Shown in pieces: positions 735 through 32,992 of a stretch of DNA of 64,000 nucleotides; the first letter of the stretch is position 1, and the number at the start of each line of letters is the position of its first letter. Below the pieces are notes generated by a model. It was not told the origin of the DNA, did not search any database, and worked only from the letters and a program-made list of their open reading frames with translations. This DNA is from Arenicellales bacterium (GTDB taxonomy: Bacteria; Pseudomonadota; Gammaproteobacteria; Arenicellales; JAJDZL01), in contig OZ244840.1 in assembly GCA_965220725.1 (NCBI GenBank), forward strand, positions 1,408,548 to 1,472,547, read 5' to 3'. The translations under genes were made by a program, and so were the position numbers.

Positions 735-2241
735 CCGCTCCTGAATCCAGTCCTCAATCGCAACCCCCGTTGGATTACCGGTGCGCTGTCAATCGAATGT
801 ATCTTGTAGTCTTGAAGATTACGCATAATGCGGTAAATAATAGCATGGTAGTTGGTGTAATTCTCAATTTCGTGACTTCCTGACATCGAGAATTTGGTAC
901 TCAATGGAACAGCATCCTGCAACAGTTGAATCCCTCATGGTGTGCTGGTTGCGAAAGGTGAAAGGTTACGGTTTGCAACTCATACCCTGTGCTTTTGTTG
1001 ACAGAATTCTCCTGTTGGTTTTCAGTGTGAATGCGGCCTTTTCAGTTCGCATTGAAAATCATAAATTCCCAGTATTCTGTCAGCGTGTCATTGCCGGGTA
1101 AAACTGTACTTGGAAAACGCATAAAGTGCCAGTATCAGCTTTATCCGCGGAAGAGTAGTTGCGGGCATTACCATGCTGCCAGGATCAATCGCGATTCCAG
1201 TATAAATTGCTGTGTTGGTTTTTTCAAAATTCGATGCCAATGCCGACTTTTCAGTTGAAGTGAATGTGTTAAAATGCGATAGTCTTTTCAGTGAATTCTT
1301 TTCTTGGAAATGTTCCCGGTCAGATTCATTGAAATGACAAGGTTTTTCAATAATACGAATATCTCAAACCGACAATTCAGTATTTCTCGGCATTCGGATC
1401 AATCAATATTTTTGAGAGTCTTTTCTCGCGGCATTGGATGCCGGATTGAAGAGAGTAGAGTTAGGATTCATCCCATCACCACTAAATTAAGGGAATACAA
1501 AAAAAATCATGCATCACCGAATTGAACTTCCAGTTAATCCTGTAACCGTTTGCACACGGTAACTTGCCCTTGATCCTTTGCATATGGTTGGGTTGATCAT
1601 TTAGTTAATTTCCCAATTGTTTCGAAATTCCGACGGAATAATTGAAATGAAACCGCAATATAGGGACTACATTGACCGGAACTGTAGACTTGGTATGGAA
1701 TATTGCCAAGGGCTGAAAGGGGGCGTTACCCGATCGGGTAACGGATGCAACTGCCTATCGTTCAAGCATGATCAGGTCGGGTTAATGAAATTCCGTGTAT
1801 TTCCGCGATGTGTCGGCTTTCGCCGCCAAGTGTCACTGGAGGTTGGTAACAGTTCTGGTTGCCAAATGGTGTTGCCGCTGAAGTGGTTTGACGCGATTTG
1901 CTTGAGCAGCAGCGAAGGTGGCGGTGTTTCTTTACTGTTTGAGACTATTGGTGCCAAGTGGGATGCCATCCATTGCAGGGCCACCAAACTGCGGAAGCAG
2001 ATTATTAGGCGCGAACGAAGACAATTTCATGCCGGACTGTCGGTTGTTGATCTATTCAGATTGCCGGGCATGCGGCTGCGAACACTGTTCCGACACAGGA
2101 AACTGAGTCAATTCACAGTAAAGGCCAGCTATATCACTCAGAAGTCCAATACCGAATGCAAGATGTCATCTCTTTACCTTAAATATTGTTTTCGGCATCC
2201 TCTCATATGCAAGGCCAAGCGTCATCAGTTGGGGTGATTCG

Positions 2242-5200
2242 TTGATTTTCAAATCGAAAATACTGCGATTATTCGCATTCATCGGGTGCTTGCTGTGTGT
2301 TTCGGTTACTGCGTATCCCACAGCGGTATCGGGAAATGTACTGAAGTACACCTTCTCTGATGATGGTACGACCGTGACCATCACTGCCACGGGCAGGCTG
2401 GATGTCACGGATTTCGATATTGTTGCTCTGGATTCCATCCCGTCGGATTTTGAAAGAATCAGGATCGCCGACACACAGATCTGGGGGATTTTTCCGCCGT
2501 CACTGCAGCCCGAGCCCGAGACCCCGATCAGTCGCTACAGAGTACGTCCTGATTTTGTGACTACCGGCAGGGATTCGTACGATGGTACACCCGAGTTGGA
2601 CGGGTTGAGCAACTACGCCTACGATTCCAATTACCATATTCAGTTCAGCACCTGGTCAGAGCGGTTGGAGTTGGACAGCGACCATCTGACGGGGAACATC
2701 TACCAGATTTCGGACGGAGTGACGACGTTCACGGGAAGGTTGTATGACACCGATACCACAATCAAACAACTCGGAGACAATGATTTCCATATCGAGAATG
2801 CGATTGGCAGTCAGAAGATCATTTTCACAACCCGGACCAGCCTGACCCCGAGTTTCGGCACCGCGACGGTGGCTGATCAGAGTTACACGCAAGGCCGGGC
2901 CATCAGTGACCTCCAGTTGCCGGCGGCGAGCGGTGGCGATGGCACGCTGAGCTATTCGGTTATTCCGGCATTGCCGGCAGGGTTGTCGTTTGATGCAACG
3001 AGTCGCAAGATTACAGGCACACCGACTGCCGCACAGGCGGCGACCGAGTACACCTATTCCGTGATTGATACCGACGGCGACATCGCGTTGCTGAAGTTCA
3101 TGATCACGGTGGTGCAACAGCCGCACACGCTGAAGTACACCTTCTCTGATGACGGCACGACCGTGACCATCGCTGCCACGGGCAGGCTGGATGTCACGAA
3201 TTTCACTTTTGTTCGGGATGGCGTCCCGGGGGACTATTCACGAATCAAATTCGACGACACAGGGATCTGGGGGATTCATCCGCCGTCGCAGCCCACCACC
3301 CAGGCCAGACGCTACGACGGACTTCCTGATTTTGTGACTACCGGTGAGGATACCTACGGTGGTACATCCGAGTTGGACGGGTTGAGCAACTACGCCTACG
3401 ATTCCAATTACCACATTCGGTTCAATACCTGGCTCAAGTATCTGGAGCTGGACAACGGGCGTCTGACGGGAAACATCTACCAGATTTCGGACGGAGTGAC
3501 GACGTTCACGGGAAAGTTGTATGACACTGATACCACAATCAAACAACTCGGAGACAATGACTTCCACATCGAGCATGCGATTGGCAGTCAGAAGATCATT
3601 TTCACAACCCGGACCAGTCTGACACCGAGTTTCGGCACCGCGACGGTGGCTGATCAGAGTTACATGCAGAACCAGGCGATCAGTGAGTTGCAGTTGCCGG
3701 CGGCGAGCGGTGGCGATGGCACGCTGACCTACTCGGTCATTCCGGCATTACCCACAGGGTTGTCGTTTGATGCAGCGAGCCGCAAGATAACAGGCACACC
3801 GACTGCTGCACAGGCGGCGACCGAGTACACCTATTCTGTGACTGACACCGACGGCGACATCGCGTTGCTGAAGTTCATGATCACGGTGGTGCAGCGGCCG
3901 CACACGCTGACATTCACGTTCTCTGACAATGGCACGACCTCGACCATTGCGGCCTCGGGCAGTCTGGATGTTTCGGGTTTCACTTTTGACCGGGATCTGG
4001 AACAGCGGACAACTTTGAATCTCAAGATCGACGATACGGGTATCTGGGTGATTCATCCACAGCACCAGAACATCATCAATGTTTCGAAGAGTCGCTATAA
4101 GGATCTTCCGGCCTTTGTGACCACCGGCGGGGATACCTATACGGGCAGTACTGAAGTCCAGAATCTCAGCAACTATACCCAGCATGACTTCGCCATCAGG
4201 TTCAGTCCTTCGGGTAGGTATCTGGAAATCGACAAGGCGAACCTGACCGGTGGTATCTACGATCTTACGGGCGAATCGGCGACGTTCACGGGTACGTTGC
4301 TGAGTACCCTCAAAGACAATGACTTTCACATCGAGCATGCGATTGGGATTCACAAGATCATTTTCACGACGCCGGTTTATTTCGGCAATGCGACGATTGG
4401 CAATAAGACATACACCAAGGGTAAGGCGATCAGTGATTTTGAGCTGCCTCAGGCGCGCAGCAGCGACGATCAGACGGTATCTTATTCGATCAGCCCGGAT
4501 TTGCCTGCCGGGTTGTCATTCAATGCTGCGAGCCGCAAGTTGACGGGCACCCCGACTGTGGTGCAGGCAGCCACCGAGTACACCTACACAGCGATGGATT
4601 CGGACGGCGACACTGCGACGCTGACGTTCGAGATCACGGTGTTGCAGCCGCGTACGTTGAGGTTCACCTTCTCCGATGACGGCACAACCACGACGATTGC
4701 CGCTGCGGGCAGCCTGGATGTTTCGGGCTTCAAAATCGATAAGGAGGATACGCAGCCGGCTGACGATGATTATCTCAAAATAGCCGATACCGACCGCTGG
4801 GCGATTTATCCGCCGATTACCAACTACAATGTTCCGCTGAGGCGCTATAAGGATCTTCCGAACTTCGCGACCACCGGCAGGAGCAGCTATACAGGCCATG
4901 ATGAAGCCCGTAGTATGCCAAACTACTCCAACGAGTTTACCATCCGATTCCACACCCATCTCAAGTGGATGGAAGTTGACAAGGCGAGCCTGACTGGAGA
5001 TATCTACAATCCCTCGGGCAAGAAGGTGACATTCACCGGCACGTTGCTGAACACTCTCGATGACAATGACTTCCACATCGAGTTTGCGATCGGTCACCAG
5101 AAGATCATCTACACGACGAGGCCCAACAATACGCCGGACTTTGGTGTTGCGACAGTTGCCGATCAGGCTTACGTGAAAGATGAGGCGATCAGCGAACTCC

Positions 5201-8200
5201 TGCTGCCGGCGGCGACCGGTGGTGATGGCACGCTGAGCTATTCGATAAGCCCGGCCCTGCCCGCAGGACTGTCGTTTGATGATGTGAGCCGCAAGTTGAC
5301 AGGCACACCGACAACAGATCAGGCGGCGACTGAGTACACCTACACTGCGAGCGATGACGAGGAGGACACTGCGACACTGACGTTCAAGATTTCGGTGGTG
5401 CCGGTACCGGACAAGCCGTCTGGTTTCAGTGCGGTTGGAAACAACGGACAGGTGAGCCTGCGCTGGGTCAATCCGCGCAACAGCCTGATCACGAAATACC
5501 AGTACCGGCAACGAGTCGGCAGCGGGAATTTTGGTGCCTGGGAGGACATGTCGGACAGTGATGCGAATACCACCAGTCACACGGTGACCGGACTGACCAA
5601 CGGCACCGGCTACAGTTTCAGGATCCGGGCGGTGATTTCCCAGGTCAACGGAGTCGAGTCGGATGTGGTCACCGCAACACCCCAATTGATGCAGCCGGCA
5701 AAACCGACGCGGTTGTATGCATCCGTGCCGGCGACAGGTTCGGTTGACTTGCACTGGGTTGCGGTTGATGCGAGTGCGACCAGTTGGGAATACCGTAAAC
5801 GGTTCGAGGTCAGGCGAGGAACCGACGGGACACTGGTACGGCAGGATGACTATGAGAACTGGACTGCGGTGACCAACAGCACTTCAACCACCCGTATGGT
5901 TCAGGTCACCGGGTTGGAGACCGGTGTCAATCTGGGAAGCGGTGAGGAAGGCTGGTATCGGTTCCAGGTCCGTGGAAAGAATTCACAGGGGGTGGGATCG
6001 GCGTCCGATGAGGTTCAGGCGCGGCCGGTCATTGAGACGGATCTTTTCGGACCGGGTTATTCTGAACAACCCCAACGCTTCACGATTATTTCCGGACAGC
6101 ATACCACCTACATCCATCCGTCAATCATTAACCTGCATACGACGGAAGCCAATCCTAGTATGACTATCAGGGTGGAACCCGTAACCATCACACATACGTT
6201 CAAACCACAGGTTGACGGATGGATACCTAGTCATAGTGCGGACCTTCATCGCCAGGCACACACGTTCTCGGGTACACACAACGGTGCCACGACGAATCCG
6301 CTGGCTGGAACGGCGTCAGTCCGTGCGGGTGGGTTTCAAAGAGGTTCAGTGAATTTTTATTTCAGCTGGCTTGTGCCTCCTGATGCACCGACTTCAGTGT
6401 CTGTGGCAGCCGCCGGCAGTGGCCGTGCATTGCTGAGCTGGGGTGATTTACCCTCAACAACGCACGAGCCGATACGCAATGCGATCAGTTACTGGGAATA
6501 CCGCTCCAAGGAATCGACAGCCACAGACTATACGGCTGACTGGAAACGGGTGGCTGGCAGCTCCGGGGCAACCCGCAGTCATCTTGTCACCGGTCTCGAC
6601 GACAGCAAGTCCTATGATTTCGCAGTGCGGGCGGTGATCGACGCGGCCCGCGTCGACAACCTGATCCGACCGGACGACCCGACCGCGGACATCGTCTTGG
6701 AAGGCTCGGCGGCAACCACCAGTGAGTCGTTCACTCCGGGTGAAGGGGTGGCGGCCGTGTTGGTCAATATCCCGTCGCTTGCGGTGACAGAGGGTGCTTC
6801 GGTGACCTACACGGTGTCGCTGGGCAAGCAGCCGACTGCGGATGTGACGATCACACCTTCAAGCAGTGTCGCTGCACTTGCGAGTGTGTCTCCGTCCAGT
6901 CTGACCTTCACATCGTCCAACTGGGCGACCTCACAGACGGTGACGGTCACCGGTGTGGTGGACGATGATGGTGTGGGTGGAACAGCGACTGTGACGCACA
7001 GTTTGAGCAGCACGGATACGGATTATGCGGGACTGGCTGCTTTGGCATTGCCGAGTGTCTCGGTCACGGTGAGCGATGATGACACTCCCGATCTGACGCT
7101 GTCGGTGACCAGTCTTACCGGTCTGGATGAGGCAGGAACGCAGTCAAGGACTTACACGGTCAAACCGACGACCGCGCCGGCTTCGACGTTGACCGTGACG
7201 CCGCTGGCAGGGAGTTCGTCTGTGACACTGTCACCGGCCAGTCTGAGTTTTGATTCCAGCAACTGGGAGACGGCGCAGACAGTCACGGTGACCGGTGCAC
7301 AGGACGATGATGCAGTTGCAAATGATGTGCTGATCACGCATGGACTCAGCGGTCCGGCGGAATACAGTTCGTTGGATGGCACTGCGTATCAGGTGACAGC
7401 GGCGGTAAGTGATGATGACACGGCCGGTATTACAGCGCCGTTACCCGCCAGATTCAATCTGCGCGAAGGCAGCAGTTATGGGTATTCGGTTAAGTTGCAG
7501 ACCAAACCATCGGCAGCGGTGACACTGTCGGTCGGCAGCAGCAACACCAATGCGGTGACTGGCGGTTCAGTGACCTTCACACCAGGCAACTGGTCAACAC
7601 CGCAGACATTGACGATCACCGCGGTGGATGATGCGACTGCCACATCAGCGGTGCTGACGCGCAGTCTCAGCGGTGCGGCCGAGTATGCGGCATTGACGCT
7701 GTCATCGGTAACGGTGGACGTGATCGACAATGACAGCCCCGGACTGGTGGTGTTCACCAATACCCTGGCGATGATCGAGGCAGGTGATGATGCCAGCTAT
7801 ACCGTTTCACTGGCGACCCAGCCGACAGCCGACGTGACACTGACGGTGACCAGTGGCGATTCAACGCTTGCGCAGGTGTCGTCCGACACCGGATCCACCA
7901 AAACCTTCTCCGGCAGCGCTGATCTGACGTTCACGAATTCGAATTGGTCGAGCGCACAGACAGTGACGGTACGCAGTCCTGTTGATGAAAACTCAACCGA
8001 TGACAGCGTGACGCTGACCCACACCGCGGTGTCAACGGATTCAGATTACAACGCAGCAGACTTCAGTGCAGCGAATGTAACGGTGAGCATTACAGATGTG
8101 CCGGCACCAGCCAAACCCACGGATTTCAAGGCGAAACCGGGTAACACCGAGGTGACGCTGAGCTGGTCTGATCCATCCAACGACACCATCACGAAATACC

Positions 8201-11200
8201 AGGTGCGACACAAGGCTGGCTCGTCGTTTGATGACACCGCCACAGATGACGCCCTGTGGACAGACATTACAGGAAGCAACGCTGATACCACCGCGTATAA
8301 GTTGACCGGTCTCACCAATGGCACGCAGTACGTGTTTCAGATTCGGGCGGTGAATGCTGGTGGAAGTGGAATCGCGTCAGATGCATTGACCACGGCACCT
8401 CAGACACCTCCGCCTGCACCAACCGACTTTGCAGCGAAGGCGGGTGATGCGAAGGTGACGCTGACGTGGTCTGATCCATCCGACAGCAGCATCACGAAAT
8501 ACCAGGTGCGCCACAAGCAAGGCGAGTCGTTTGACAATACCACTGCCGATGATGACCTGTGGGCTGACATTCCGGAAAGTGATAGTGAGACCACAGAGCA
8601 CATCGTGATGAATTTGGACAACGATACGAAGTATGTGTTCCAGATTCGGGCGGTGAGGTCCGGCGTTGCGGGTGCTGAAACCGCAGCTGCGACGGCAACA
8701 CCAATTGCGGTACCGAAGAAGCCGTCTGGCCTCAGCACCATTGTGAATAGCATGCAGGTGAAACTGATCTGGAACCACCCGCAGGACAGTAGCATAACAA
8801 AATATCAGTACAAGCGCAGATTAGGCAATGGTCCATATTCTGTGGAGTGGGTTGACATGACGGGCAGCAATGCGCAGACCACTGAGTATCTGTTTACCGG
8901 ACTGCCCAATTACAATCGTTTCAGTTTCAAGATCCGGGCAGTCAATGCCAGTGGAGGTGGAGCCGAGTCCGATGTAGTGACTGCGCAACCCGAGATATTA
9001 CAGCCGGCAAAGCCGAAGCGATTGCACGCAGTCGTTCCGGTGACCGGGACTGTCGATTTGCACTGGGTTACCGTTGATGCGAGCTCGACCAGTTGGGAGT
9101 ATCGAAAACGGTTCGAGGTGCGACGTAGCAACGGGACACTGGTACGGCAGGAAGATTACGGGAACTGGACTGCGGTGACTGACAGCACCGTGACTACACG
9201 TTCGGCTCAGATAACCGGGTTGGAAACTGGAGCCAATCTGGGCTCCGACGAGCAGGGCTGGTATCGATTCCAGGTTCGTGGAAGGAATTCACTGGGGATG
9301 GGTCCGGCTTCCGATGAGGTTGAGGTGCGACCGGTTCAGATCGACGAGACTATACTTCAGGGGCCTGGCAATACCACACAAACCCAAAAATTCACGATAG
9401 TATCCGGGCAGTACACCACCTACACCTATCCTTCAATTATCAACCCGAATACAACGACGTCTGGTGCCAGAGTAACCATGCTGGTAAGAAACAAGCCCTC
9501 TGCCGTCAAAGAGACCTTTGAGCCACAGGCAACTGAATGGATGTTGGGTCAGAGTAAGGAAATTCTTCGCCAGGTACACACATTCTGCTGCACGCATCAC
9601 GGTGACACAGCAAACCCGCTGGAAGTGCAGGGATCGCTCCGTTTGGGTCAGCAATTGGGAAATAGCGTGAGTTTTGAATTCAGCTGGCTTGCACCTCCTG
9701 ATGCACCGACTTCACTGTCTGCGGCGGCCGCTGGCAGTGGACGTGCGTTGCTGAGCTGGGGCGATTCAGCCTCAGCGCATGAGCCGATACGCAATGCGAT
9801 CAGTTACTGGGAATACCGCTCCAAGGAGTCGACAGCCACAGACTATACGGCCGACTGGAAACAGGTACCCGGCAGTACCCGAACAACCCGCAGTCATCTT
9901 GTCACCGGTTTGCTCGACAGCAAGTCCTATGATTTCTCGGTGCGGGCGGTAATCGATGCGGCCCGCATCGACAACCTGATCCGACCGGACGATCCGACTG
10001 CGGACCTCGTACTGGAAGGTGCGGCGGCAACCACCAGCGCATCGTTCACTCCGGGTACAGGTGCGGCGGCGGTGTTTGCCACGCCCTCGACACTTGCCGT
10101 GACCGAGGGCAGCACTACGACCTACACGGTGTCGCTGGGCAAGCAGCCGAGTGCAAATGTGACGATCACGCCTTCAAGCAGTGCCGCAGCGCTGGCGAGT
10201 GTGTCTCCGTCCAGTCTGACTTTCACAGCGTCCAACTGGGCGACATCACAGACGGTGACGGTCACCGGTGTGACGGACGATGATGGTGTCGGTGGAACAG
10301 CGACCGTGACGCACAGTTTGAGCAGCACTGATACGGATTATGCGGGATTGGCTGCTTCGGCATTGCCGAGTGTCTCGGTGACAGTAACCGATGACGATAC
10401 TCCCAGTCTGACGCTTTTGCCAACCAGTCTTACCGGTCTGGATGAGGCGGGAACGCAGTCAAAGACATACACGGTCAAACCGACAACCGCGCCGGCTTCG
10501 ACGTTGACCGTGACACCGCTGGCAGGGAGTTCGTCTGTCACGCTGTCACCGGCCAATCTGAGTTTTGATTCCACCAACTGGCAGACGGCGCAGACAGTCA
10601 CGGTGACCGGTGCACAGGACGATGATGCAGTTGCAAATGATGTGCTGATTACGCATGGACTCAGTGGTCCGGCGGAATATGGCTCGTTGGACGGTACTGC
10701 ATATCAGGTAACAGCGGCGGTAAGTGATGATGACACGCCCGGAATTGCAGCGCCGTTACCCACCAGCTTCAATCTACGCGAAGGGAGCGAATATGAATAT
10801 TCGGTTGTTTTGCAGACCCGACCATCGGCAGCGGTGACACTGTCGGTCAGCAGCGACAGCAATGCGGTGACTGCCAATTCGGTGACCTTCACACCGAGCA
10901 ACTGGGCAACACCACAGACGTTGACGATCACCGCAGTGGATGATGCGACTTCCACAGAAGCGGAGCTGACGCCCAGTTTCACCGGTGCGGCCGAGTATGC
11001 GGCGCTGACGCTGTCATCGGTAACTGTGAATGTGATCGACAATGACAGCGCCGGCCTGGTGGTGCTCACGAATGCTTTGGCGATGAGCGAAGCGGGTGAT
11101 GATGCCAGCTATACCGTTGCGCTCGCAACCCAGCCGACAGCCAATGTGACCCTAACCGTGACCAGTGGCGATTCGACGCTGGCGCAGGTGTCGGCCGATA

Positions 11201-14200
11201 CGGGCAGTACCAAGACCTTTTCCGGCAGTGCAGTGCTCACGTTCACGAATTCGAACTGGTCGAGCGCGCAGACAGTGACGGTACGCAGTCCCATTGATGA
11301 CAACTCAACCGACGACAACGTGACGCTGACGCATACAGCGGCATCAACGGATACCAACTACAACAGTGCTGACTTCAGTGCTGCAAATGTGACGGTGAGC
11401 ATCACTGAATTACCGGTACCAGCCAAGCCGACGGATCTCAAGGCGTCGCGGGGTAACACCGAGGTGACGCTGAGTTGGTCCGACCCATCTGACAGTACCA
11501 TCACCAAGTACCAGGTGCGACACGCCAAGGGTACTTCGGTGCCGGTCAACATGGCCTGGACCGACATCATCGGTAGCGGCGCCAGTACCACCACCCACAC
11601 GGTGACAGGTCTGATCAACGATACGGAATACGCGTTCGAGTTGCGGGCAGTGAACAATTACGGAAACAGCTTGGCAGCAAGTACGACAGAGATACCGGTG
11701 GCGGAGCCGATACCGGTGCCACAGGATTTCACAGTCACGGTGGAGTTTCAGCGCGATAAAAACTTCGACTACAAGCCATTCATCCGTCTGGCGTGGACCA
11801 AGGCGGAAGGAATTGTGGGAGGGCAATTCAAGCGAAAGAAACAGGTCAATTCCGGATGGTGGGTGGTTTCCCCCTGGACGGCTCTTCCAGAGCTCTGTTT
11901 CGAACTCGAACATCCTTTCTGGCTGGAGTCCGCCGAGTGGAGCACGACCTATGAGTATGAGGTTCGCTTTGTGAGAAATGGCGTGCCGGGGCAGAGCACC
12001 GGCCGCATCCGGGTGACGACGCCCGATCACCCGGGCCCGGGGCTGGAGCTTGCCGCGAGAACGCCACCGGCCACCGACATGCGTCTGTACGAGACAGGCG
12101 ATGGCATAAGAGGACTCTTCGAAAGCTATCGTGTGCGGTTGATCACGCAACCGGCCGGCAATGTGACGGTGACGGTGACCAGCAGCGATACGAGTGCGGC
12201 GACGGTATTGCCATCGACTGTGACGTTCACGCCCGACAACTGGAGGGCCAGCTCACACATCATCTTCGTCTTCGGCGTGGACGATGACGTGGTCACAGGC
12301 ACCCGTCCCGTGGAGCTCGCGCACAGCATCAGTGAGACGAATTCACCGAACGACTATCCGACGACGCTGGAATTGCCATCGGCGCATGTGCGGATAGTGG
12401 ATGATGATGTGGAGTTGGAGCTTGACTTGTCTTCCGACGACTTGACGGTGGACGAGAACGGGACAGCAACGTTCGATGTGAAGCCATCGGTCGAGATTCC
12501 CGGAAGCATCACGTTGTCGGTTACGAGTGCCGACCCGTTGGCCGTGACCGTATCTCCGGCGGAACTGACATTCACGTATGCGGACTGGGAGACGACACAG
12601 ACGGTGACGGTGACCGGCGTGGATGACGTCGACGCGGTGCAGGAAACGACGATGGTGAGCCTGACATCGACCGAAGTGTCGGCAACCGTTTCAGTGACGG
12701 TGACCGATGACGATGTGGTGCCGGGCGCGCCGCGCAATCTGAGAGCGACGGCGGGTGACCAACAGGTGACGCTCACCTGGACAGCAGCATCGGGCCCGGG
12801 GATCACCAAGTACCAGGTGCGCTACGCCAAGGGAACTTCGGTGCCGTCGAATACGGCGTGGACGGACGTTGCAAACGGCGCGAACGCCACGACCCATACG
12901 GTGACGGGGCTGGAGAACAGTGAGCAATACGCCTTTGAGGTCAGTGCGGTGAATAGTGCCGGGAACGGCGCGGCGGCCAGCACGACAGCGACGCCGGTGC
13001 TCCCGATTCCAGCAGCGCCGAACGATTTGGACGTGACAGCGGGCAACGGTCAGGTGACACTTACCTGGACCCTGCCGACCAATACGAGTTCGATCGATAA
13101 AGCGCAAGTGCGTTACAAAATCCAAACAGACGCGGGCTGGAATGAGTGGGTACAAGCGTCTACGACCACTTCACATTCGCTGACAGGTCTGGTGAACGGG
13201 GCGAGGTATGTGTTTCAGGTCCGTTTGGAGAACGCAGCCGGCATCGGCGCGGCAGCAACGAAAGAAGTGTTGCTGGCATTGACGGCACCAGAGGCGCCGA
13301 CGGATTTTAATGCTACGGGTGGCGATACCCGGGCGACTTTGAGTTGGACGTTGCCAACCAATGTGAATCTGATTTCAAGTATTGATGTGCGCCACAAGCT
13401 GAAAACGGCGACAGAATGGTCCGATTGGACAATCCTTGCATCGAATTTGACCTCATATATCGTCGATGGATTGGTGAACGGGGAGACGTACTCGTTTGAG
13501 GTACGCGCGGTGAACACAGCCGGCGAAGGAATTGCATCGGCAGAAGCAACACTTGCGCTGACAAAACCGGGCCAGCCAACTGACCTTTCGGCGACAAGTG
13601 GAATCAACGAGGCAGATCTCAGTTGGACCCTGCCGACCAATGTGAATTCGATTACCCTGGTCCAGGTGCGTCACAAGGTCAAATCGGAACCGGATACACA
13701 GTGGAGTGCTTGGACAGATCTCGCATCGGCGACGGCGACCACGCACAAGGTCACAGGACTGGTGAACGGAGAAACCTACACGTTCGAAGTACGGGCGTCG
13801 AACTCAGTAGGTGACGGTGACCTTGCATCAGTGGATTTGATGGTGGAGTTGACGGTACCGGGAGTCGTGACAGGGTTTGCAGCGGTCGCCGGTGATACTG
13901 AGGCAGACCTTGGTTGGACGTTGCCGACCAATGCGAAAATCACCAGTGTTGAGGTGCGCCACAAGGTGAAATCGGCGCCGGATACGCAATGGAGTGGTTG
14001 GACAGCGCTCTCGTTGTCGGCGAACACACATAAGGTGACGGGATTGTTCAACGGGGAGACTTACGTGTTCGAGGTTCGGGCGAGGAACTCGAAGGGTGCC
14101 GCAGACGCGGTGTCGGCCGAGGCGACATTGGCGCCGACAAGACCGGGTAAGCCGACGGGACTGACAGCGGCGGAAGGTGACGCCAGGATCGTCGTCAATT

Positions 14201-15786
14201 GGAAGCTGCCGACCAATGTAAACGATCTTACCGCAGTGCAGGTGCGTCATAAGGCAGCATCGGCGAATTGGACGAATGCGGACAGATGGGTCTCGCTTTC
14301 GTCAGATGCCACTACGTACACGGTATCGACCGGGTTGATCATTGGCGAGGAGTACACGTTTCAGGTTCGGGCGGTCAACGCCGTTGGCGAAGGTGATGCG
14401 GCATCGATCAATGCGACAGTGGTTGAGAAGAATTTACTGATTCAGCAGTCCGTCGAGGAGATTCTGCCGAACGTGGCGGTCATCATGGGCGATCAGACTG
14501 TAACTGGAATCAGAGACCGTATCCAAAATTATGAGATGACAACGCGTGCAGGTGGCGTACGGTTCAACCTGACAAACGATGGACTGTTCTCACCTGGGAG
14601 TTGGCGGGCGCCGGTTCCAGTGGATGAGCAACGATTCTTGTACGATGGTCAGTTTGCGACGCTGGTGAATTCACTTGGCGTGTCGAATAATGGCCGCCGC
14701 GCGCCATCATTCTCAATATGGACCGGTGCGACCATCAAGCGGTTCAATGACAGTGGCGGCGAGCTGCAATACGATGGTGAGTTGACGGGATTCAGTTTTG
14801 GGATTGATACCAGGCTGGGCGAGGACATGGTTGGCGGAGTCACTTTTTCGAATTACACCACCAAGACAGATTACAAACGCGACTCCACGTCGGGGCACCA
14901 AAAGGTGGAGGTGAACAGCGTGAATCCGTATTTCGGGCTCAAGTCACCTGAGTACTCGGTTTGGTCATTTGTCGGAATGGGTTCCGGTGACCTGGAGGTG
15001 ACGCAGGAAAATGTGGGTGGCATCAATACCAGTGACCTCTCGATGAATTCGATGGGCGTCGGTGCGAGTGGCGCAGTGTGGTACGGCAAGAGGACAACGT
15101 TTCACGTGACGGGTGAATTCACCCGGACGGAAATGGACGTGGACGGTTCAGATACCATTGACGCAGTCAAGGTCGGCGTCATGCGCAGCCGCATGCTGAT
15201 AGCCGCCAGTCGGCGCCATGAGATGATTCAGGGTGGCTATGTGGAACCGAAAATTGAGTTTGGCGTAGCCTACGACAGCGGTGACGGCGCCACTGGCAGT
15301 CGGGTGGAGGTTGGTGCTGGGATGCATTACCTGTCGCCTTCGCATCGGATGACGATGTCACTGTCTTCTTACGGTTTGATGGAACGCAACGACTACGGCG
15401 AATGGGGTGTCCAAGGCAGCATACGGATGTTGCCGGGCGTGAGGGATCGCGGCTTGTCATTCAGTCTGCAACCCTCGTATGGCGCCACGGTGCGCGGTGT
15501 TGAGCGAATCTGGGAGACCGGTAAGCTGGCCGGCGAGGTTGCCGATGAGCGGCAATACCAGCCTCGACTGGATGCGAATCTTGGTTATGGATTCCGGATC
15601 ATCGGAGATCGGGGATTGCTGACTCCGTACAGTGAGGTGTCACTTGAAGGGGAGGATAGAACCTATCGAGTTGGAACCCGATTCAGGTATGGCGCCAGAT
15701 TTGAGTTGAATCTGGTTGGTGAAAGCGCGGATTCGCTAGACGACACCGACCGATCAATCAAGCTTCAAGGTGGAATTCGGTTCTAG
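2242..15786 (+). CDS. Giant autotransporter-type adhesin, paralog 1 (4514 aa)
   Basis: Uninterrupted 13.5-kb ORF with a TTG start, followed by a hydrophobic signal peptide (MIFKSKILRLFAFIGCLLCVSVTA). Passenger: 4x(unknown ~170-aa module + LPAGLSFDxxSRKxTGTPT cadherin-like Ig domain), FN3 domains (LxWxxP...Y.Y....W......T.H.VTGL.N.T.Y.F.xRAVN) and Calx-beta-like repeats (FTxxNWxxxQTVTVTxxDDD). The last ~450 aa show the autotransporter beta-domain pattern (SIWTGATIKRF...YDGELTGFSFGIDTRLG...) and end in ...LQGGIRF. Confidence 0.85.
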   Translation: MIFKSKILRLFAFIGCLLCVSVTAYPTAVSGNVLKYTFSDDGTTVTITATGRLDVTDFDIVALDSIPSDFERIRIADTQIWGIFPPSLQPEPETPISRYRVRPDFVTTGRDSYDGTPELDGLSNYAYDSNYHIQFSTWSERLELDSDHLTGNIYQISDGVTTFTGRLYDTDTTIKQLGDNDFHIENAIGSQKIIFTTRTSLTPSFGTATVADQSYTQGRAISDLQLPAASGGDGTLSYSVIPALPAGLSFDATSRKITGTPTAAQAATEYTYSVIDTDGDIALLKFMITVVQQPHTLKYTFSDDGTTVTIAATGRLDVTNFTFVRDGVPGDYSRIKFDDTGIWGIHPPSQPTTQARRYDGLPDFVTTGEDTYGGTSELDGLSNYAYDSNYHIRFNTWLKYLELDNGRLTGNIYQISDGVTTFTGKLYDTDTTIKQLGDNDFHIEHAIGSQKIIFTTRTSLTPSFGTATVADQSYMQNQAISELQLPAASGGDGTLTYSVIPALPTGLSFDAASRKITGTPTAAQAATEYTYSVTDTDGDIALLKFMITVVQRPHTLTFTFSDNGTTSTIAASGSLDVSGFTFDRDLEQRTTLNLKIDDTGIWVIHPQHQNIINVSKSRYKDLPAFVTTGGDTYTGSTEVQNLSNYTQHDFAIRFSPSGRYLEIDKANLTGGIYDLTGESATFTGTLLSTLKDNDFHIEHAIGIHKIIFTTPVYFGNATIGNKTYTKGKAISDFELPQARSSDDQTVSYSISPDLPAGLSFNAASRKLTGTPTVVQAATEYTYTAMDSDGDTATLTFEITVLQPRTLRFTFSDDGTTTTIAAAGSLDVSGFKIDKEDTQPADDDYLKIADTDRWAIYPPITNYNVPLRRYKDLPNFATTGRSSYTGHDEARSMPNYSNEFTIRFHTHLKWMEVDKASLTGDIYNPSGKKVTFTGTLLNTLDDNDFHIEFAIGHQKIIYTTRPNNTPDFGVATVADQAYVKDEAISELLLPAATGGDGTLSYSISPALPAGLSFDDVSRKLTGTPTTDQAATEYTYTASDDEEDTATLTFKISVVPVPDKPSGFSAVGNNGQVSLRWVNPRNSLITKYQYRQRVGSGNFGAWEDMSDSDANTTSHTVTGLTNGTGYSFRIRAVISQVNGVESDVVTATPQLMQPAKPTRLYASVPATGSVDLHWVAVDASATSWEYRKRFEVRRGTDGTLVRQDDYENWTAVTNSTSTTRMVQVTGLETGVNLGSGEEGWYRFQVRGKNSQGVGSASDEVQARPVIETDLFGPGYSEQPQRFTIISGQHTTYIHPSIINLHTTEANPSMTIRVEPVTITHTFKPQVDGWIPSHSADLHRQAHTFSGTHNGATTNPLAGTASVRAGGFQRGSVNFYFSWLVPPDAPTSVSVAAAGSGRALLSWGDLPSTTHEPIRNAISYWEYRSKESTATDYTADWKRVAGSSGATRSHLVTGLDDSKSYDFAVRAVIDAARVDNLIRPDDPTADIVLEGSAATTSESFTPGEGVAAVLVNIPSLAVTEGASVTYTVSLGKQPTADVTITPSSSVAALASVSPSSLTFTSSNWATSQTVTVTGVVDDDGVGGTATVTHSLSSTDTDYAGLAALALPSVSVTVSDDDTPDLTLSVTSLTGLDEAGTQSRTYTVKPTTAPASTLTVTPLAGSSSVTLSPASLSFDSSNWETAQTVTVTGAQDDDAVANDVLITHGLSGPAEYSSLDGTAYQVTAAVSDDDTAGITAPLPARFNLREGSSYGYSVKLQTKPSAAVTLSVGSSNTNAVTGGSVTFTPGNWSTPQTLTITAVDDATATSAVLTRSLSGAAEYAALTLSSVTVDVIDNDSPGLVVFTNTLAMIEAGDDASYTVSLATQPTADVTLTVTSGDSTLAQVSSDTGSTKTFSGSADLTFTNSNWSSAQTVTVRSPVDENSTDDSVTLTHTAVSTDSDYNAADFSAANVTVSITDVPAPAKPTDFKAKPGNTEVTLSWSDPSNDTITKYQVRHKAGSSFDDTATDDALWTDITGSNADTTAYKLTGLTNGTQYVFQIRAVNAGGSGIASDALTTAPQTPPPAPTDFAAKAGDAKVTLTWSDPSDSSITKYQVRHKQGESFDNTTADDDLWADIPESDSETTEHIVMNLDNDTKYVFQIRAVRSGVAGAETAAATATPIAVPKKPSGLSTIVNSMQVKLIWNHPQDSSITKYQYKRRLGNGPYSVEWVDMTGSNAQTTEYLFTGLPNYNRFSFKIRAVNASGGGAESDVVTAQPEILQPAKPKRLHAVVPVTGTVDLHWVTVDASSTSWEYRKRFEVRRSNGTLVRQEDYGNWTAVTDSTVTTRSAQITGLETGANLGSDEQGWYRFQVRGRNSLGMGPASDEVEVRPVQIDETILQGPGNTTQTQKFTIVSGQYTTYTYPSIINPNTTTSGARVTMLVRNKPSAVKETFEPQATEWMLGQSKEILRQVHTFCCTHHGDTANPLEVQGSLRLGQQLGNSVSFEFSWLAPPDAPTSLSAAAAGSGRALLSWGDSASAHEPIRNAISYWEYRSKESTATDYTADWKQVPGSTRTTRSHLVTGLLDSKSYDFSVRAVIDAARIDNLIRPDDPTADLVLEGAAATTSASFTPGTGAAAVFATPSTLAVTEGSTTTYTVSLGKQPSANVTITPSSSAAALASVSPSSLTFTASNWATSQTVTVTGVTDDDGVGGTATVTHSLSSTDTDYAGLAASALPSVSVTVTDDDTPSLTLLPTSLTGLDEAGTQSKTYTVKPTTAPASTLTVTPLAGSSSVTLSPANLSFDSTNWQTAQTVTVTGAQDDDAVANDVLITHGLSGPAEYGSLDGTAYQVTAAVSDDDTPGIAAPLPTSFNLREGSEYEYSVVLQTRPSAAVTLSVSSDSNAVTANSVTFTPSNWATPQTLTITAVDDATSTEAELTPSFTGAAEYAALTLSSVTVNVIDNDSAGLVVLTNALAMSEAGDDASYTVALATQPTANVTLTVTSGDSTLAQVSADTGSTKTFSGSAVLTFTNSNWSSAQTVTVRSPIDDNSTDDNVTLTHTAASTDTNYNSADFSAANVTVSITELPVPAKPTDLKASRGNTEVTLSWSDPSDSTITKYQVRHAKGTSVPVNMAWTDIIGSGASTTTHTVTGLINDTEYAFELRAVNNYGNSLAASTTEIPVAEPIPVPQDFTVTVEFQRDKNFDYKPFIRLAWTKAEGIVGGQFKRKKQVNSGWWVVSPWTALPELCFELEHPFWLESAEWSTTYEYEVRFVRNGVPGQSTGRIRVTTPDHPGPGLELAARTPPATDMRLYETGDGIRGLFESYRVRLITQPAGNVTVTVTSSDTSAATVLPSTVTFTPDNWRASSHIIFVFGVDDDVVTGTRPVELAHSISETNSPNDYPTTLELPSAHVRIVDDDVELELDLSSDDLTVDENGTATFDVKPSVEIPGSITLSVTSADPLAVTVSPAELTFTYADWETTQTVTVTGVDDVDAVQETTMVSLTSTEVSATVSVTVTDDDVVPGAPRNLRATAGDQQVTLTWTAASGPGITKYQVRYAKGTSVPSNTAWTDVANGANATTHTVTGLENSEQYAFEVSAVNSAGNGAAASTTATPVLPIPAAPNDLDVTAGNGQVTLTWTLPTNTSSIDKAQVRYKIQTDAGWNEWVQASTTTSHSLTGLVNGARYVFQVRLENAAGIGAAATKEVLLALTAPEAPTDFNATGGDTRATLSWTLPTNVNLISSIDVRHKLKTATEWSDWTILASNLTSYIVDGLVNGETYSFEVRAVNTAGEGIASAEATLALTKPGQPTDLSATSGINEADLSWTLPTNVNSITLVQVRHKVKSEPDTQWSAWTDLASATATTHKVTGLVNGETYTFEVRASNSVGDGDLASVDLMVELTVPGVVTGFAAVAGDTEADLGWTLPTNAKITSVEVRHKVKSAPDTQWSGWTALSLSANTHKVTGLFNGETYVFEVRARNSKGAADAVSAEATLAPTRPGKPTGLTAAEGDARIVVNWKLPTNVNDLTAVQVRHKAASANWTNADRWVSLSSDATTYTVSTGLIIGEEYTFQVRAVNAVGEGDAASINATVVEKNLLIQQSVEEILPNVAVIMGDQTVTGIRDRIQNYEMTTRAGGVRFNLTNDGLFSPGSWRAPVPVDEQRFLYDGQFATLVNSLGVSNNGRRAPSFSIWTGATIKRFNDSGGELQYDGELTGFSFGIDTRLGEDMVGGVTFSNYTTKTDYKRDSTSGHQKVEVNSVNPYFGLKSPEYSVWSFVGMGSGDLEVTQENVGGINTSDLSMNSMGVGASGAVWYGKRTTFHVTGEFTRTEMDVDGSDTIDAVKVGVMRSRMLIAASRRHEMIQGGYVEPKIEFGVAYDSGDGATGSRVEVGAGMHYLSPSHRMTMSLSSYGLMERNDYGEWGVQGSIRMLPGVRDRGLSFSLQPSYGATVRGVERIWETGKLAGEVADERQYQPRLDANLGYGFRIIGDRGLLTPYSEVSLEGEDRTYRVGTRFRYGARFELNLVGESADSLDDTDRSIKLQGGIRF
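2341..5400 (+). repeat. Four tandem ~250-263-aa composite modules (unknown domain + cadherin-like Ig domain) in paralog 1
   Basis: Module starts are marked by L(K/T/R)(Y/F)TFSD(D/N)GTT at 2341, 3130, 3907 and 4657. Each module ends ...TEYTY(S/T)xxDxDGDxAxLxFxITVV before the next. Confidence 0.85.
5401..11700 (+). repeat. Tandem ~3.3-kb super-repeat (two copies) inside paralog 1
   Basis: VPDKPSGFSAV... at 5404 recurs as VPKKPSGLSTI... at 8710, an offset of about 3306 nt. The same domain order follows in both copies: FN3, FN3-like, ~115-aa unknown insert, FN3-like, 4 Calx-like repeats, FN3. The second copy is shorter at its 3' end. Confidence 0.8.
14430..15786 (+). other. Putative linker plus autotransporter beta-barrel translocator region of paralog 1
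   Basis: The repeat architecture stops at ...ATVVEKNLLIQQSVEEILPNV. What follows has alternating-hydrophobic strand patterns, G/Y/W-rich beta-domain motifs and a terminal aromatic F. Confidence 0.65.
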
Positions 15787-16774
15787 CGGGCAGGCAGACC
15801 TGTCAATGCCATCTGTAGAGGTTCAGTGGCTGCGAAGGGTGATCTGCCAACACAAACGGCAACTGCTTCGAATGGTGCATCATATCGCCGGCAAATTGAC
15901 GGGATCACTTGATACAGGCAACCATTCACCTGCTCGCTGGGATGTATATTGTCCTTGATTCTCTCTCGTCTCGATGCGAGTCTTCTGAGGACTGCGAAGT
16001 GCACGTAGTCTCGACAAGACGGAAACTTTGTCCATCCGTCATTCAAAGCTGAATGCATTGACATTGTCGCAGGACAACTCGATGAGTCTTTGAAAATCAC
16101 CCGATGCCGAATTTCCACATCGATAAACGGAGTGCTCGTTCCATGGAATGGCAGTTGTGGGCGTTGTTCGCGACTGAAGTCTGATTCGAGAAATCACATG
16201 CAGATCATTGAATATTTTCAATAAAACCAAAGCCCGAAGACTAACAAGTAATGTTGTTTGTGTTAAAATGCACCTCGTCCTGCAGTAAAAGTTCTTTGGA
16301 AGTCGGAATTGTCCCGACCCATTGAGTTGCTGAGGCATTGAACTGGTTTGAAGAAGACAAACAACGGTTAATGGCATTTGGTTGTCAGAGAGTTCAATTA
16401 GTATGAGTTGACTCTCGACGAGCAGGATGCTGGCATGCGGTTGGTAAATGTAAAAATCATTTACACTGCCATCCAGACCTTAATTTGGGCACTTATATAT
16501 TTAAGTTGACAGTTAGGAATTCATTCTAATAATCCGAGTAAAATGACAATAATTGAAATATCATTCGAAAAATCTCGATCGGAATGATGAATATTTCCAA
16601 GATATTTTGTTCGTCCACTTAACTATATAAGCCCCTTAATTTGAGTTAGTCCTATTAATAATGAAGGAACATAGACCCAAGACGGGATGTAGAAGGTTAA
16701 AGCGATCCGGGCCATGGTCCAGACCTCTTTCTGTACCCGGTTCCTCTTCAACAAGCACAGGCCTTATCGACATG

Positions 16775-16990
16775 AGTATTGGTACTCTCATGCAGAGCCG
16801 GTCGCAGGTCGCACTATTCTTCAAATGGATCAAGCGGGATTTGACGAGCAAGTCGTCTTATGGCAACTCAGAAAATATTGCCAGCAGCGAGTTGTGGAAT
16901 GTGATTTCGATCTATGCATTGTGTGCGATCGTCAAGAAACAGTTGCGACCGGAACTCAACCTCTATTTGTATTCTATTCCGAAATACCAG
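16775..16990 (+). mobile_element. Remnant of an IS4/IS5-type DDE transposase (C-terminal fragment only)
   Basis: The translation ...IGTLMQSRSQVALFFKWIKRDLTSKSSYGNSENIASSELWNVISIYALCAIVKKQLRPELNLY resembles the conserved C-terminal ...RWQVELFFKWIKQHLRIK.F.GTSENAV.TQIW.A...Y.L.AI.KK... block of DDE_Tnp_1 transposases. No N-terminal or catalytic part is present, and the surrounding DNA is AT-rich. Confidence 0.6.
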
Positions 16991-17367
16991 TTACCAGCAT
17001 CAGGGTGTATCGATGGTGGCTACCTTTCGAATCCATTGCTGTTTGATGCAAATCGGAACATTGGAGCTGAGTGAAGTTTCATATAGCGAGCGTTTGGCAG
17101 GTTTCGATTAATGATGGGTAACCTTAAGCACAATCTGCACTGTGAGGGATTGTCGATGGTTGACACGTCTAGGTTGAACATCCGGCAATCACGGATATCG
17201 TTCGCGTCTGGATACGAGCGCCGGCGCGCAGAAGAAACCTACCAAGTGGGTCAGGAATCATACTCCGAGTGCAAGATGCAGGATGTCATCACCATACGCT
17301 GGAATTTGTATTCGGCATCCACTCATACGCAGGGCGATGCGTCATCGGTTGGGGCGGTTCGATAATT

Positions 17368-20300
17368 TTGAAATCGAAAATATCGCGATTATTCGCATTC
17401 ATCGGGTGCTTGCTGTGCTTTTCGGTTACTGCGTATCCCACAGTGGCATCGGGAAATGTACTGAAGTACACCTTCTCTGATGATGGTACGACCGTGACCA
17501 TCACTGCCACGGGCAGGCTGGATGTCACGGACTTCAATTTTGTTCTGGATACCATCCCGTCGGATTATGCGCGAATCAGGATCGACGACACACAGATCTG
17601 GGGGATTCATCCGCCGCTTCAGCAGCCCGCCACCCCGATCAGACGCTACAGCGGACTTCCTGATTTCGTGACTACCGGCAGGGATACCTACGATGGTACG
17701 AACGAGCTCGACACTTTAAGCAACTACAGCTCCAATTACCAGATTGAGTTCAGCACATGGTCCAAGCGGTTGGAGTTGGACACGGAACGTTTGACGGGGA
17801 ACATCTACCAGATTTCGGACGGAGTGACGACGTTCACGGGAAGGTTGTATGACACCGATACCACAATCAAACAACTCGGAGACAATGATTTCCACATCGT
17901 GAATGCGATTGGCAGTCAGAAGATCATATTCACAACCCAGACCAGCCTGACACCGAGTTTCGGTACTGCGACGGTGGCTGATCAGAGTTACATGCAAGGC
18001 CGGGCCATCAGTGACCTCCAGTTGCCGGCGGCGAGCGGTGGCGATGGCACGCTGAGCTACTCGGTCATTCCGGCATTGCCGGCAGGGTTGTCGTTTGATG
18101 CAGCGAGCCGCAAGATAACAGGCACACCGACTGCCGCACAGGCGGCGACCGAGTACACCTATTCTGTTATTGACACCGACGGCGACATCGCGTTGCTGAA
18201 GTTCATGATCACGGTGGTGCAACAGCCGCACACGCTGAAGTACACCTTCTCTGATGACGGCACGACCGTGACCATCGCTGCCACGGGCAGGCTGGATGTC
18301 ACGAATTTCACTTTTGTTCGGGATGGCGTCCCGGGGGACTATTCACGAATCAAATTCGACGACACAGGGATCTGGGGGATTCATCCGCCGTCGCAGCCCA
18401 CCACCCAGGCCAGACGCTACGACGGACTTCCTGATTTTGTGACTACCGGTAAGGATACCTACGGTGGCACATCCGAGTTGGACGGGTTGAGCAACTACGC
18501 CTACGATTCCAATTACCACATTCGGTTCAATACCTGGCTCAAGTATCTGGAGCTGGACAACGGGCGTCTGACGGGAAACATCTACCAGATTTCGGACGGA
18601 GTGACGACGTTCACGGGAAAGTTGTATGACACTGATACCACAATCAAACAACTCGGAGACAATGACTTCCACATCGTGCATGCGATTGGCAGTCAGAAGA
18701 TCATTTTCACAACCCGGACCAGCCTGACACCGAGTTTCGGCACCGCGACGGTGGCTGATAAGAGTTACATGCAGAACCAGGCGATCAGTGAGTTGCAGTT
18801 GCCGGCGGCGAGCGGTGGCGATGGCACGCTGACCTACTCGGTCATTCCGGCATTACCCACAGGGTTGTCGTTTGATGCAGCGAGCCGCAAGATAACAGGC
18901 ACACCGACTGCTGCACAGGCGGCGACCGAGTACACCTATTCTGTGACTGACACCGACGGCGACATCGCGTTGCTGAAGTTCATGATCACGGTGGTGCAGC
19001 GGCCGCACACGCTGACATTCACGTTCTCTGACAATGGCACGACCTCGACCATTGCGGCCTCGGGCAGTCTGGATGTTTCGGGTTTCACTTTTGACCGGGA
19101 TCTGGAACAGCGGACAACTTTGAATCTCAAGATCGACGATACGGGTATCTGGGTGATTCATCCACAGCACCAGAACATCATCAATGTTTCGAAGAGTCGC
19201 TATAAGGATCTTCCGGCCTTTGTGACCACCGGCGGGGATACCTATACGGGCAGTACTGAAGTCCAGAATCTCAGCAACTATACCCAGCATGACTTCGCCA
19301 TCAGGTTCAGTCCTTCGGGTAGGTATCTGGAAATCGACAAGGCGAACCTGACCGGTGGTATCTACGATCTTACGGGCGAATCGGCGACGTTCACGGGTAC
19401 GTTGCTGAGTACCCTCAAAGACAATGACTTTCACATCGAGCATGCGATTGGGATTCACAAGATCATTTTCACGACGCCGGTTTATTTCGGCAATGCGACG
19501 ATTGGCAATAAGACATACACCAAGGGTAAGGCGATCAGTGATTTTGAGCTGCCTCAGGCGCGCAGCAGCGACGATCAGACGGTATCTTATTCGATCAGCC
19601 CGGATTTGCCTGCCGGGTTGTCATTCAATGCTGCGAGCCGCAAGTTGACGGGTACCCCGACTGCGGTGCAGGCAGCCACCGAGTACACCTACACAGCGAC
19701 GGATTCGGACGGCGACACTGCGACGCTGACGTTCGAGATCACGGTGTTGCAGCCGCGTACGCTGAGGTTCACGTTTTCCGATGACGGCACAACCACGACC
19801 ATTGCCGCTGCGGGCAGCCTGGATGTTTCGGGCTTCACATTCGATACGGATAAGCAGCCGACTAACGATAGGTTTCTCAGTATTGCCAATACGGATCGCT
19901 GGGCGATTTACCCATCGACTGTGGTTGGCATCAATATTCCACTGCGCCGCTATAAGGATCTTCCGGGCTTCGTGACCACCGGTAGCGACAGCTACACGGG
20001 CCTCGATCAAGTCGAAAATCTTCCAAACTACTCCGACGAGTTCACCATCCGGTTCCACACCCATGCCAAGTGGCTGGAAGTTGACAAGGCGAGCCTGACT
20101 GGAGATATCTACAATCCCTCGGGCAAGAAGGTGACGTTCACGGGCACGTTGCTGAGCACCCTCACTGACAATGACTTCCACATCGAGCTTGCGATCGGTC
20201 ACCAGAAGATCATATACACGACGACGCCCAACAAGACGCCGGATTTCGGTGTTGCGACAGTTGCCGATCAGACTTACGTGAAAGATGAGGCGATCAGCGA

Positions 20301-31974: not shown

Positions 31975-32772
31975 CGGACACTCAATATTTCAACGGAATT
32001 TTGTTGGCGTTTGCTGAAACTCACGCAGCTGTCCATTCGGTGCAAAAAGCCTTCTGAAGCTTCAAGGCTGAACATCGATTCCTTATTGGCTTCCTCGGAC
32101 ATTTCCCCAAAAATCTTGTCCGCTTCTATTGAGTCGCGCTGGCCCGGTCCTTTGGTGGATCAAGAACTCAGTCAGTCAGAGTTTTCCCATGTGTTGTAGC
32201 CTGCAAGTACAGTGGTTCTCGGTAGTCGCTTGAAACATGAATACACAGATTTGTCGCTGCATTGGAATTCACAGTGAAAGAATTAAAGACGTTGACTTGA
32301 TTGCAAAATGAGTGTATTCGGATATGCATGTATTTCAAAGTGACATTCTCCTCGCACACAACAACTTTCACTGCCAGATTCAAAAAGTCAGATCAATTGT
32401 TGAAGTCAGTTTTCGATTGGTCGACCCGACACCAGTGTTGGTGCGACTTCAGTTCAGTCGATCGCCAAGTTCGAAGTCCAACAGGTCATGTGAAATCTTG
32501 TAGTCTCACACGCACCACAGCGCATTGACTTGAAGCGGCACAGTTATTTGAAATGTCAAGTGAATATGATTTCGCTGACAGTCAATCGGTTTTCATTCAT
32601 TGAAAATCTTGGAAAAGATAGTATTATTTACTGCATCGTGAGGATGTTGACTTACAATTGTCCAAACCATGGCAGGAGTGCCTGCAGCGAAATTCATTCT
32701 CTGCTGATATCGTATCGGTAGAAGGATTGAAGGAATTAAATCTACCTAAACCGTTCTGGGGATCAGACTTAA

Positions 32773-32985: not shown

Positions 32986-32992
32986 GCCAGGC

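Follow-up and report, generated by a model that had tools for sequence, protein, structure and literature searches.

How can two neighbouring genes whose 3' ends are plainly old relatives be base-for-base identical over hundreds of nucleotides near their 5' ends, and clearly different in two short patches on either side of that identity? The question is raised by g1 and g2, two tandem giant genes in a stretch of 64,000 nucleotides (nt) from an Arenicellales bacterium of the Gammaproteobacteria (assembly GCA_965220725.1, contig OZ244840.1, positions 1,408,548 to 1,472,547; hereafter the window, to which all coordinates refer). On the evidence of this one assembled genome, the most probable answer, to which we assign a probability of about 0.7, is that g1 and g2 are tandem paralogs of long standing whose 5' 6 kb have been repeatedly homogenised by non-reciprocal recombination.

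Tiers of identity along the two genes

The genes and the segments distinguished in their alignment are as follows.

2242..15786, + strand: g1, an uninterrupted open reading frame (ORF) of 4514 residues with Pfam matches to fn3, He_PIG and Autotransporter; in order, a TTG start, signal peptide, four modules, block A, FN3 domains, block A', FN3 domains and beta-barrel
17368..31974, + strand: g2, about 4868 residues, paralog of g1
2156..8208, + strand: collinear block, copy 1, with a leader of about 90 nt, the signal peptide, modules M1-M4 and block A
17276..23313, + strand: collinear block, copy 2, reaching the start of the g2 FN3 array (23198)
3070..4547, + strand: near-identical core (partner 18175-19652), covering the end of M1, the whole of M2 and most of M3
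2404..2691, + strand: divergent patch of module 1, 80% identical in nucleotides to its partner 17524-17796, with three indels and changes in 26% of codons
4732..4970, + strand: divergent patch of module 4, 76% identical in nucleotides to its partner 19837-20075, with changes in 36% of codons
4971..7998, + strand: background tier, the rest of M4 and block A, about 96-97% identical
7999..8208, + strand: 3' edge of the collinear block, where identity, 93% at first, drops to about 65% before it disappears; synonymous divergence (dS) 0.87
14611..15786, + strand: C-terminal linker and autotransporter beta-domain of g1 (PF03797; partner 30799-31974)
30799..31974, + strand: C-terminal linker and beta-domain of g2 (partner of g1 14611-15786)

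The 5' blocks at 2156-8174 and 17276-23279 are 94.7% identical over 6026 columns in a blastn alignment. In the global alignment the offset is exactly 15105 for 2632-8208 and runs from 15120 to 15111 upstream of 2632, the larger values being due to three short indels in module 1. The homology sets in some 90 nt ahead of the start codons, breaks off at the FN3 array of g2, and resumes only in the last 1.2 kb or so of each gene, at 72.8% nucleotide (blastn) and 65% amino-acid identity, to stop at the stop codons; the spacer and the downstream flanks show no g1/g2 homology by blastn or global alignment. These edges imply that exchange was limited to the 5' part of the gene. Inside the block the core holds just 5 differences in 1478 nt, all of them left of 3656, so that 3656-4547 is a perfect run of 892 nt. 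The confinement of the five to the left 586 nt has a probability of about 0.01 under random placement, which hints at two nested events. The segment between the module-1 patch and the core (2692-3069) is again about 96-97% identical.

A sequence-only reading of this DNA had described much of this pattern, and its account of mosaic identity is borne out by the core, background, patch and barrel tiers of the alignments. It had taken the collinearity at an offset of 15105 to begin near 3130; the offset is exact from 2632 to 8208, and the homology itself starts earlier, about 90 nt before the start codons. The identical translations that it noted (3748-4353 on the minus strand and 4319-4543 on the plus strand, each with its partner) follow from the 892-nt DNA identity, the minus-strand ORFs being antisense to the gene. 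Its count of three residue differences in module 2 is right, over 259 residues and not the 185 or so that it gave. The divergent parts that it saw in modules 1 and 4 correspond to the 80% and 76% identical patches above, its estimate of two-thirds to three-quarters identity for the beta-domains agrees with the measured 65% and 72.8%, and its label of translocator is reasonable given that the C-terminal 350 residues or so match PF03797.

The evidence that bears most directly on the age of the segments comes from silent sites. Synonymous and nonsynonymous (dN) divergence were estimated by the Nei-Gojobori method in the g1 frame; given that codons with multiple hits can inflate dS, silent differences were also counted at codons with an unchanged amino acid only. 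Fisher P values are against the background tier.

Core, 3070-4547: dS 0.006; silent differences 0.6% (P = 9e-8)
Segment 2692-3069: dS 0.144
Background, 4972-7998: dS 0.087, dN/dS 0.21; silent differences 6.0%
Module-1 patch: dS 0.27, dN 0.16; silent differences 13.4% (P = 0.03)
Module-4 patch: dS 0.40, dN 0.26; silent differences 24% (P = 6e-5)
C-terminal domain: dS 1.28, dN 0.21

When the differing codons were permuted 20000 times, no permutation gave an identical stretch as long as the 296 codons observed. The core thus exceeds its flanking homologous sequence in identity with synonymous sites included, one of the marks by which gene conversion is recognised. Tiers of this kind imply that the segments differ in coalescence time, and hence that non-reciprocal exchange between old paralogs has occurred repeatedly.

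Changes of nearest relative and competing histories

A second mark of gene conversion, phylogenetic incongruence, is found within module 1. M1 and M2 are 88% identical at the nucleotide level, and about 95% in their He_PIG parts, and M2, being virtually identical in both genes, was used as the third sequence for the sites at which M1 of g1 (g1M1) and M1 of g2 (g2M1) differ. Overall M2 sides with g2M1 at 31 of 43 such sites. The pattern is reversed in one short segment:

2589..2652, + strand: M2-like tract of 64 nt in g1 module 1, where all of 12 consecutive sites unite M2 with g1M1

The Fisher P value for this tract is 6e-6 before correction, and a run of 12 sites arose in 18 of 100000 permutations (P = 1.8e-4); an AYD insertion within it is common to g1M1 and M2. 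The tract is a candidate micro-conversion from M2 to g1M1, and the switch of nearest relative implies that the divergent patch of module 1 is partly a recombination product itself. It is the sole candidate for an event that made a variant, what is visible elsewhere in the alignments being mostly homogenisation. The same Glu/Val difference (HIE in g1, HIV in g2) recurs at the homologous position of M1 (2790/2795) and M2 (3572), a single-site pattern that hints at intragenic exchange between these modules.

The sequence-only reading had ascribed the whole patchwork to gene conversion between tandem paralogs. For the near-identical blocks this explanation is upheld by the silent-site tiers and by the switch of nearest relative in module 1; it does not extend to the divergent patches, which are places that were not homogenised or that were overwritten from elsewhere. 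The patches accordingly look like escapes from homogenisation or imports and not like products of g1/g2 conversion.

A history that would account for these tiers begins with an old tandem duplication, or with the juxtaposition of two members of the family, to which the barrel dS of about 1.3 would date. Long afterwards homologous recombination of a non-reciprocal kind, possibly conversion of the RecA type, would have replaced the 5' 6 kb of one gene by a copy of the other's and so reset the divergence. Some 3-4% divergence (dS about 0.09) would then have built up, before one or two later and shorter events re-homogenised 3070-4547 (M2-M3; dS 0.006), with the newest tract perhaps spanning at most the 892-nt perfect run. 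The tract ends would lie in He_PIG-coding segments, which are highly similar across modules. The variable halves of M1 and M4 may have stayed or become different through a block to heteroduplex extension by local divergence and through selection in favour of two different tips; alternatively they may have been overwritten from other donors, 2589-2652 being the visible example.

Several observations weigh against this history. It is drawn from a single genome, and the paralog comparison had no ortholog or strain variant to stand beside it, none having been found. The silent excess of the module-1 patch is weak (P = 0.03). The dN/dS of the patches, about 0.6, is three times the background value of 0.21 and does not rise above 1, so that diversifying selection is not demonstrated. 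The patch dS (0.27-0.40) lies far under that of the barrel (1.28), implying that the patches are more than sequence left unconverted since the first duplication. Finally, with M3 as outgroup, the odd state is in g1 at 20 of the 22 sites in 4907-5301, an asymmetry that fits import into g1, or acceleration in it, better than symmetric divergence.

The last two points lead to the rival that survives best, by which the patches, above all g1 4733-5301, were imported from a third, more distant allele, be it another paralog in the genome or another strain. The patch dS matches neither the background nor the ancient tier, and a further asymmetry is seen in block A, where the internal copy A' of g1 serves as outgroup:

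8710..11448, + strand: block A', an internal duplicate of g1 block A (5404-8136)

Of 8 clustered sites in 5941-6030, 7 have g1 as the odd one out. By both asymmetries, g1 would seem to have taken up sequence from a donor outside the window or to have evolved faster in these places. Against import stands the failure to find a donor anywhere in the 64-kb window, where the positional paralog is still the best match of each patch, and the lack of a close relative in any of the collections searched (see below). On balance we regard a third-allele origin as rather unlikely. As a separate matter, the identity of A' to A within g1 is itself patchy, ranging from 56 to 94%, and constitutes a second mosaic inside a single gene.

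The alternative of a single recent event, either a partial duplication or one 6-kb conversion, followed by uneven divergence under selection, with constraint on modules 2-3 and diversification of the patches, would draw on the gathering of amino-acid differences in family-variable columns and on the contrast between the dN/dS of the patches (0.6) and that of the background (0.21). This scenario is improbable in the light of the silent sites, which are tiered alike (0.6%, 6.0% and 24%). Judged on these counts, selection at the protein level cannot yield tiers of such size, as it does not shift synonymous change 10-40 fold over adjacent kilobases, and at the background divergence the 892-nt perfect run has a probability of about 1e-13 by our own calculation from the difference counts. 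No feature that would constrain the synonymous sites of the core, such as an overlapping functional RNA or antisense gene, was found in a Pfam check of the antisense ORFs; these ORFs were rejected as real genes, there being no Pfam matches in them and a dN/dS of 0.21 in the sense frame.

An artefact of assembly or polishing, in which multi-mapping reads made the core identical or one block was mis-placed, deserves consideration in a locus as repetitive as this one, with its eight modules, a 23.5-copy array of a 285-nt unit and a 2.7-kb internal duplicate, the more so as an ENA contig with an identical AhcY breaks on the g2-facing side of that gene. We nevertheless give it little credence: both genes are complete and in frame over 13.5-14.7 kb and have unique flanks, the identity is graded over three tiers and does not take the form of one pasted block, and five isolated differences survive within the core. 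Moreover, the 2.94-Mb source contig crosses the 6.7-kb FN3 array, which would imply long reads.

Targeted hypermutation by a diversity-generating retroelement or a similar system, which might be brought to mind by the two short patches, hypervariable and equally placed within a domain that is presumably surface-exposed and of binding type, can practically be dismissed, since mismatches hit all four bases in both copies without adenine specificity, indels are present, and the window contains no third copy resembling a template repeat.

Giant passengers and an uncharacterised tip domain

The patches gain meaning from the architecture of the proteins. Each opens with the four modules, of some 250-263 residues apiece, a module being a segment of about 155 residues without a Pfam match followed by a He_PIG domain. 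The 2.7-kb block A, common to both genes, lies downstream of them; in g1 it is followed by two FN3 domains, by A' as a diverged internal copy of A, and by more domains. Pfam searches recover many FN3 domains and four He_PIG immunoglobulin-like (Ig-like) domains per protein. The segment of the g2 passenger that is not shared is dominated by one feature:

23198..29902, + strand: FN3 tandem array of g2, 23.5 copies of a 285-nt unit with 84% matches

This array starts exactly where the collinearity with g1 ends.

At the C-terminus, PF03797 (Autotransporter) matches the last 480 residues of g1 when these are searched (E = 7e-8 and 32.9 bits, the cutoff being 26), the match covering about the last 350. 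The g2 match is under the cutoff (22.8 bits, E = 8.7e-5), and g2 is 65% identical to g1 at the amino-acid level across the whole domain. Both proteins end in GGIRF and so have the C-terminal aromatic residue of an outer-membrane beta-barrel. On account of this barrel and C-terminus, g1 and g2 are classed as candidate giant classical (type Va-like) autotransporter adhesins. The passenger predicted to be displayed at the surface is atypical for the class, consisting of FN3, He_PIG and other Ig-like domains instead of a beta-helix, and this type of passenger recurs in the relatives P0122-P0151.

An N-terminal Sec signal peptide was recognised by eye only, as MIFKSKILRLFAFIGCLLCVSVTAYPTAVSG in g1 and as its equivalent from TTG 17368 in g2. 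The g2 reading frame is open from GTG 17269 to 31974, and the likely start codons are TTG 2242 for g1 and TTG 17368 for g2. The public call of g2 (P0121, 4843 residues) begins at GTG 17443 and thereby cuts off the signal peptide; a start at TTG 17368 brings back one that corresponds to the signal peptide of g1. Scans for promoters and terminators near the two starts were uninformative. With complete ORFs, a signal peptide, a PF03797 barrel and a sense-frame dN/dS of 0.21, both genes look intact and functional. The g1 segment at about 11400-12900 (residues 3050-3550 or so), which begins DFTVTVEFQRDKNFDYKPFIRLAWTK, is closely matched in P0125 and P0127 of other genomes, which suggests that members of the adhesin family share passenger cassettes and shuffle them.

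The 155-residue segment that opens each module, here termed the tip domain, is present in eight copies:

2341-2835, 3130-3612, 3907-4362 and 4657-5121: tip domains of g1
17461-17940, 18235-18717, 19012-19467 and 19762-20226: tip domains of g2

The patches of modules 1 and 4 occupy the same position within it, namely its N-terminal half. A profile of the domain searched against 1.84 billion representative proteins retrieved 31 proteins only, and all relatives whose C-terminus was included end in autotransporter-like barrels. In these relatives the domain either follows straight after the signal peptide or is interspersed with FN3 and He_PIG domains, typically near the N-terminus. Both ends of the domain are conserved across the family, and the middle varies in sequence and length. 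The residues at which g1 and g2 differ tend to lie in columns that vary across the family: their entropy is 2.7-2.9, compared with 1.95, and P is 3e-7 in module 1 and 3e-5 in module 4.

An AlphaFold prediction from an alignment of 30 sequences gave an all-beta model of the tip domain with a mean predicted local distance difference test score (pLDDT) of 93 and a predicted template-modelling (TM) score of 0.88, confidence dropping at residues 31-60 within the variable half; this model was used in preference to one from 6 sequences only (pLDDT 33). Foldseek found no match to the fold in PDB or BFVD (best TM score 0.24), and profile searches of PDB sequences and Pfam returned no match to the sequence. 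From the model and the family alignment, the patches are presumably the naturally hypervariable and exposed part of an uncharacterised domain.

Relatives, genomic setting and known systems

Searches of GTDB representative genomes and JGI metagenomes with the protein of M3, M4 and block A yielded pattern hits only, none of them related; neither an ortholog nor a strain variant was obtained. Look-ups by exact protein sequence gave no record for g1, g2, a spondin-like neighbour, metK or the intergenic ORF and succeeded for AhcY alone, and a word-indexed protein search gave He_PIG-domain matches only. The 90%-identity cluster of g2 has one member, and the nearest members of the family fall in separate 50%-identity clusters as single genes in other metagenomes, among which no tandem pair was found.

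The neighbours are chromosomal housekeeping genes, namely ahcY, metK, ntrC, ntrB, glnA and a fused glyQS; in the last, the alpha and beta subunits of glycine-tRNA ligase are joined in a single ORF of 1020 residues (45172-48234). The closest AhcY among GTDB representatives is 83% identical and comes from an Arenicellales metagenome-assembled genome (OZ243975.1). When positions 1-21278 of that contig are compared with window positions 31975-40000, the synteny of glnA, ntrB, ntrC, metK and ahcY is kept and no giant gene stands beside ahcY, implying that the adhesin pair is lineage-specific at this site. The host is accordingly placed as a gammaproteobacterium that is uncultured and to which no sequenced representative is close. 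The ENA contig with an identical AhcY mentioned above is a 19-kb contig of ERZ25067264 that ends 75 nt past ahcY, facing g2 (window position about 32940), which is consistent with a repeat-rich adhesin locus breaking assemblies. Between the two genes lies one further feature:

15787..17367: intergenic spacer, not duplicated

Its ORF at 16661-17074 has a weak match to the C-terminus of an IS4-family transposase, with 18.9 bits where the cutoff is 115 (E = 6.6e-4), and may be the remnant of an insertion sequence.

Among characterised systems, the babA/babB and homA/homB genes of Helicobacter pylori offer a close parallel, being outer-membrane adhesin paralogs under segment-specific concerted evolution, in which some segments are homogenised within the genome by intragenomic gene conversion and the allele-defining segment remains diverse (PMC2795765). 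Unlike g1 and g2, these Hop-family proteins are of about 700 residues and are not autotransporters with separate passengers, and their loci are dispersed instead of tandem. It is their 3' segment that is homogenised, whereas in g1 and g2 it is the 5' 6 kb, the barrel having diverged; and conversion in H. pylori is documented across many strains, whereas here it is deduced from one genome.

The vomp genes of Bartonella quintana also resemble g1 and g2, since they too are tandem adhesin paralogs with a conserved 5' region, and their repeats allow recombination and variant repertoires (PMC10936683). The Vomp proteins are trimeric (type Vc) with a head-stalk-anchor organisation, in contrast to the monomeric-type barrels and FN3/He_PIG passengers of g1 and g2; the events documented for vomp are whole-gene deletions during infection; and unlike Bartonella quintana, the host of g1 and g2 is uncultured and probably environmental. 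In Moraxella catarrhalis, exchange of cassettes between the adhesin paralogs UspA1, UspA2 and UspA2H leads to mosaic proteins. Recombination is stated to be able to generate UspA2H proteins that are hybrids (PMC3458076). The UspA proteins, however, are trimeric autotransporters encoded at non-tandem loci, and their domains are unrelated to those of g1 and g2. The pilE/pilS genes of Neisseria, vlsE of Borrelia and msp2 of Anaplasma likewise undergo non-reciprocal recombination among repeated coding segments, with one expression site served by promoterless, partial donors; g1 and g2 differ in being both complete genes. Antigenic variation from silent cassettes is ruled out here, as the window contains eight modules, all inside the two complete genes, and no truncated cassettes.

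On the whole, mosaics made by gene conversion between paralogous adhesins are textbook knowledge in Helicobacter, Bartonella, Moraxella and Neisseria, and the mechanism of conversion itself is not new here; what is unfamiliar is the type of protein. To our knowledge such mosaics have seldom been described from environmental bacteria that are uncultured, or from proteins as large as these. Should reads and related genomes confirm it, the locus would provide a clean natural example of three dated conversion layers together with two islands that resist conversion.

The most interesting by-product of the analysis is the uncharacterised tip domain. As a tentative proposal, on balance unlikely to hold in all its parts, the domain may represent a hitherto undescribed kind of ligand-binding module in environmental autotransporters and the tandem pair a two-gene specificity system for adhesion, in which conversion would keep the scaffold of modules 2-3 and block A identical, selection would separate the variable halves of M1 and M4, and micro-conversions between modules and between genes would occasionally make new binding variants. 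The hypervariable half of the domain is a probable determinant of specificity and, given this probable role and a family of only 31 protein clusters among 1.84 billion, the tip-domain family would be a sensible choice for work on structure and binding.

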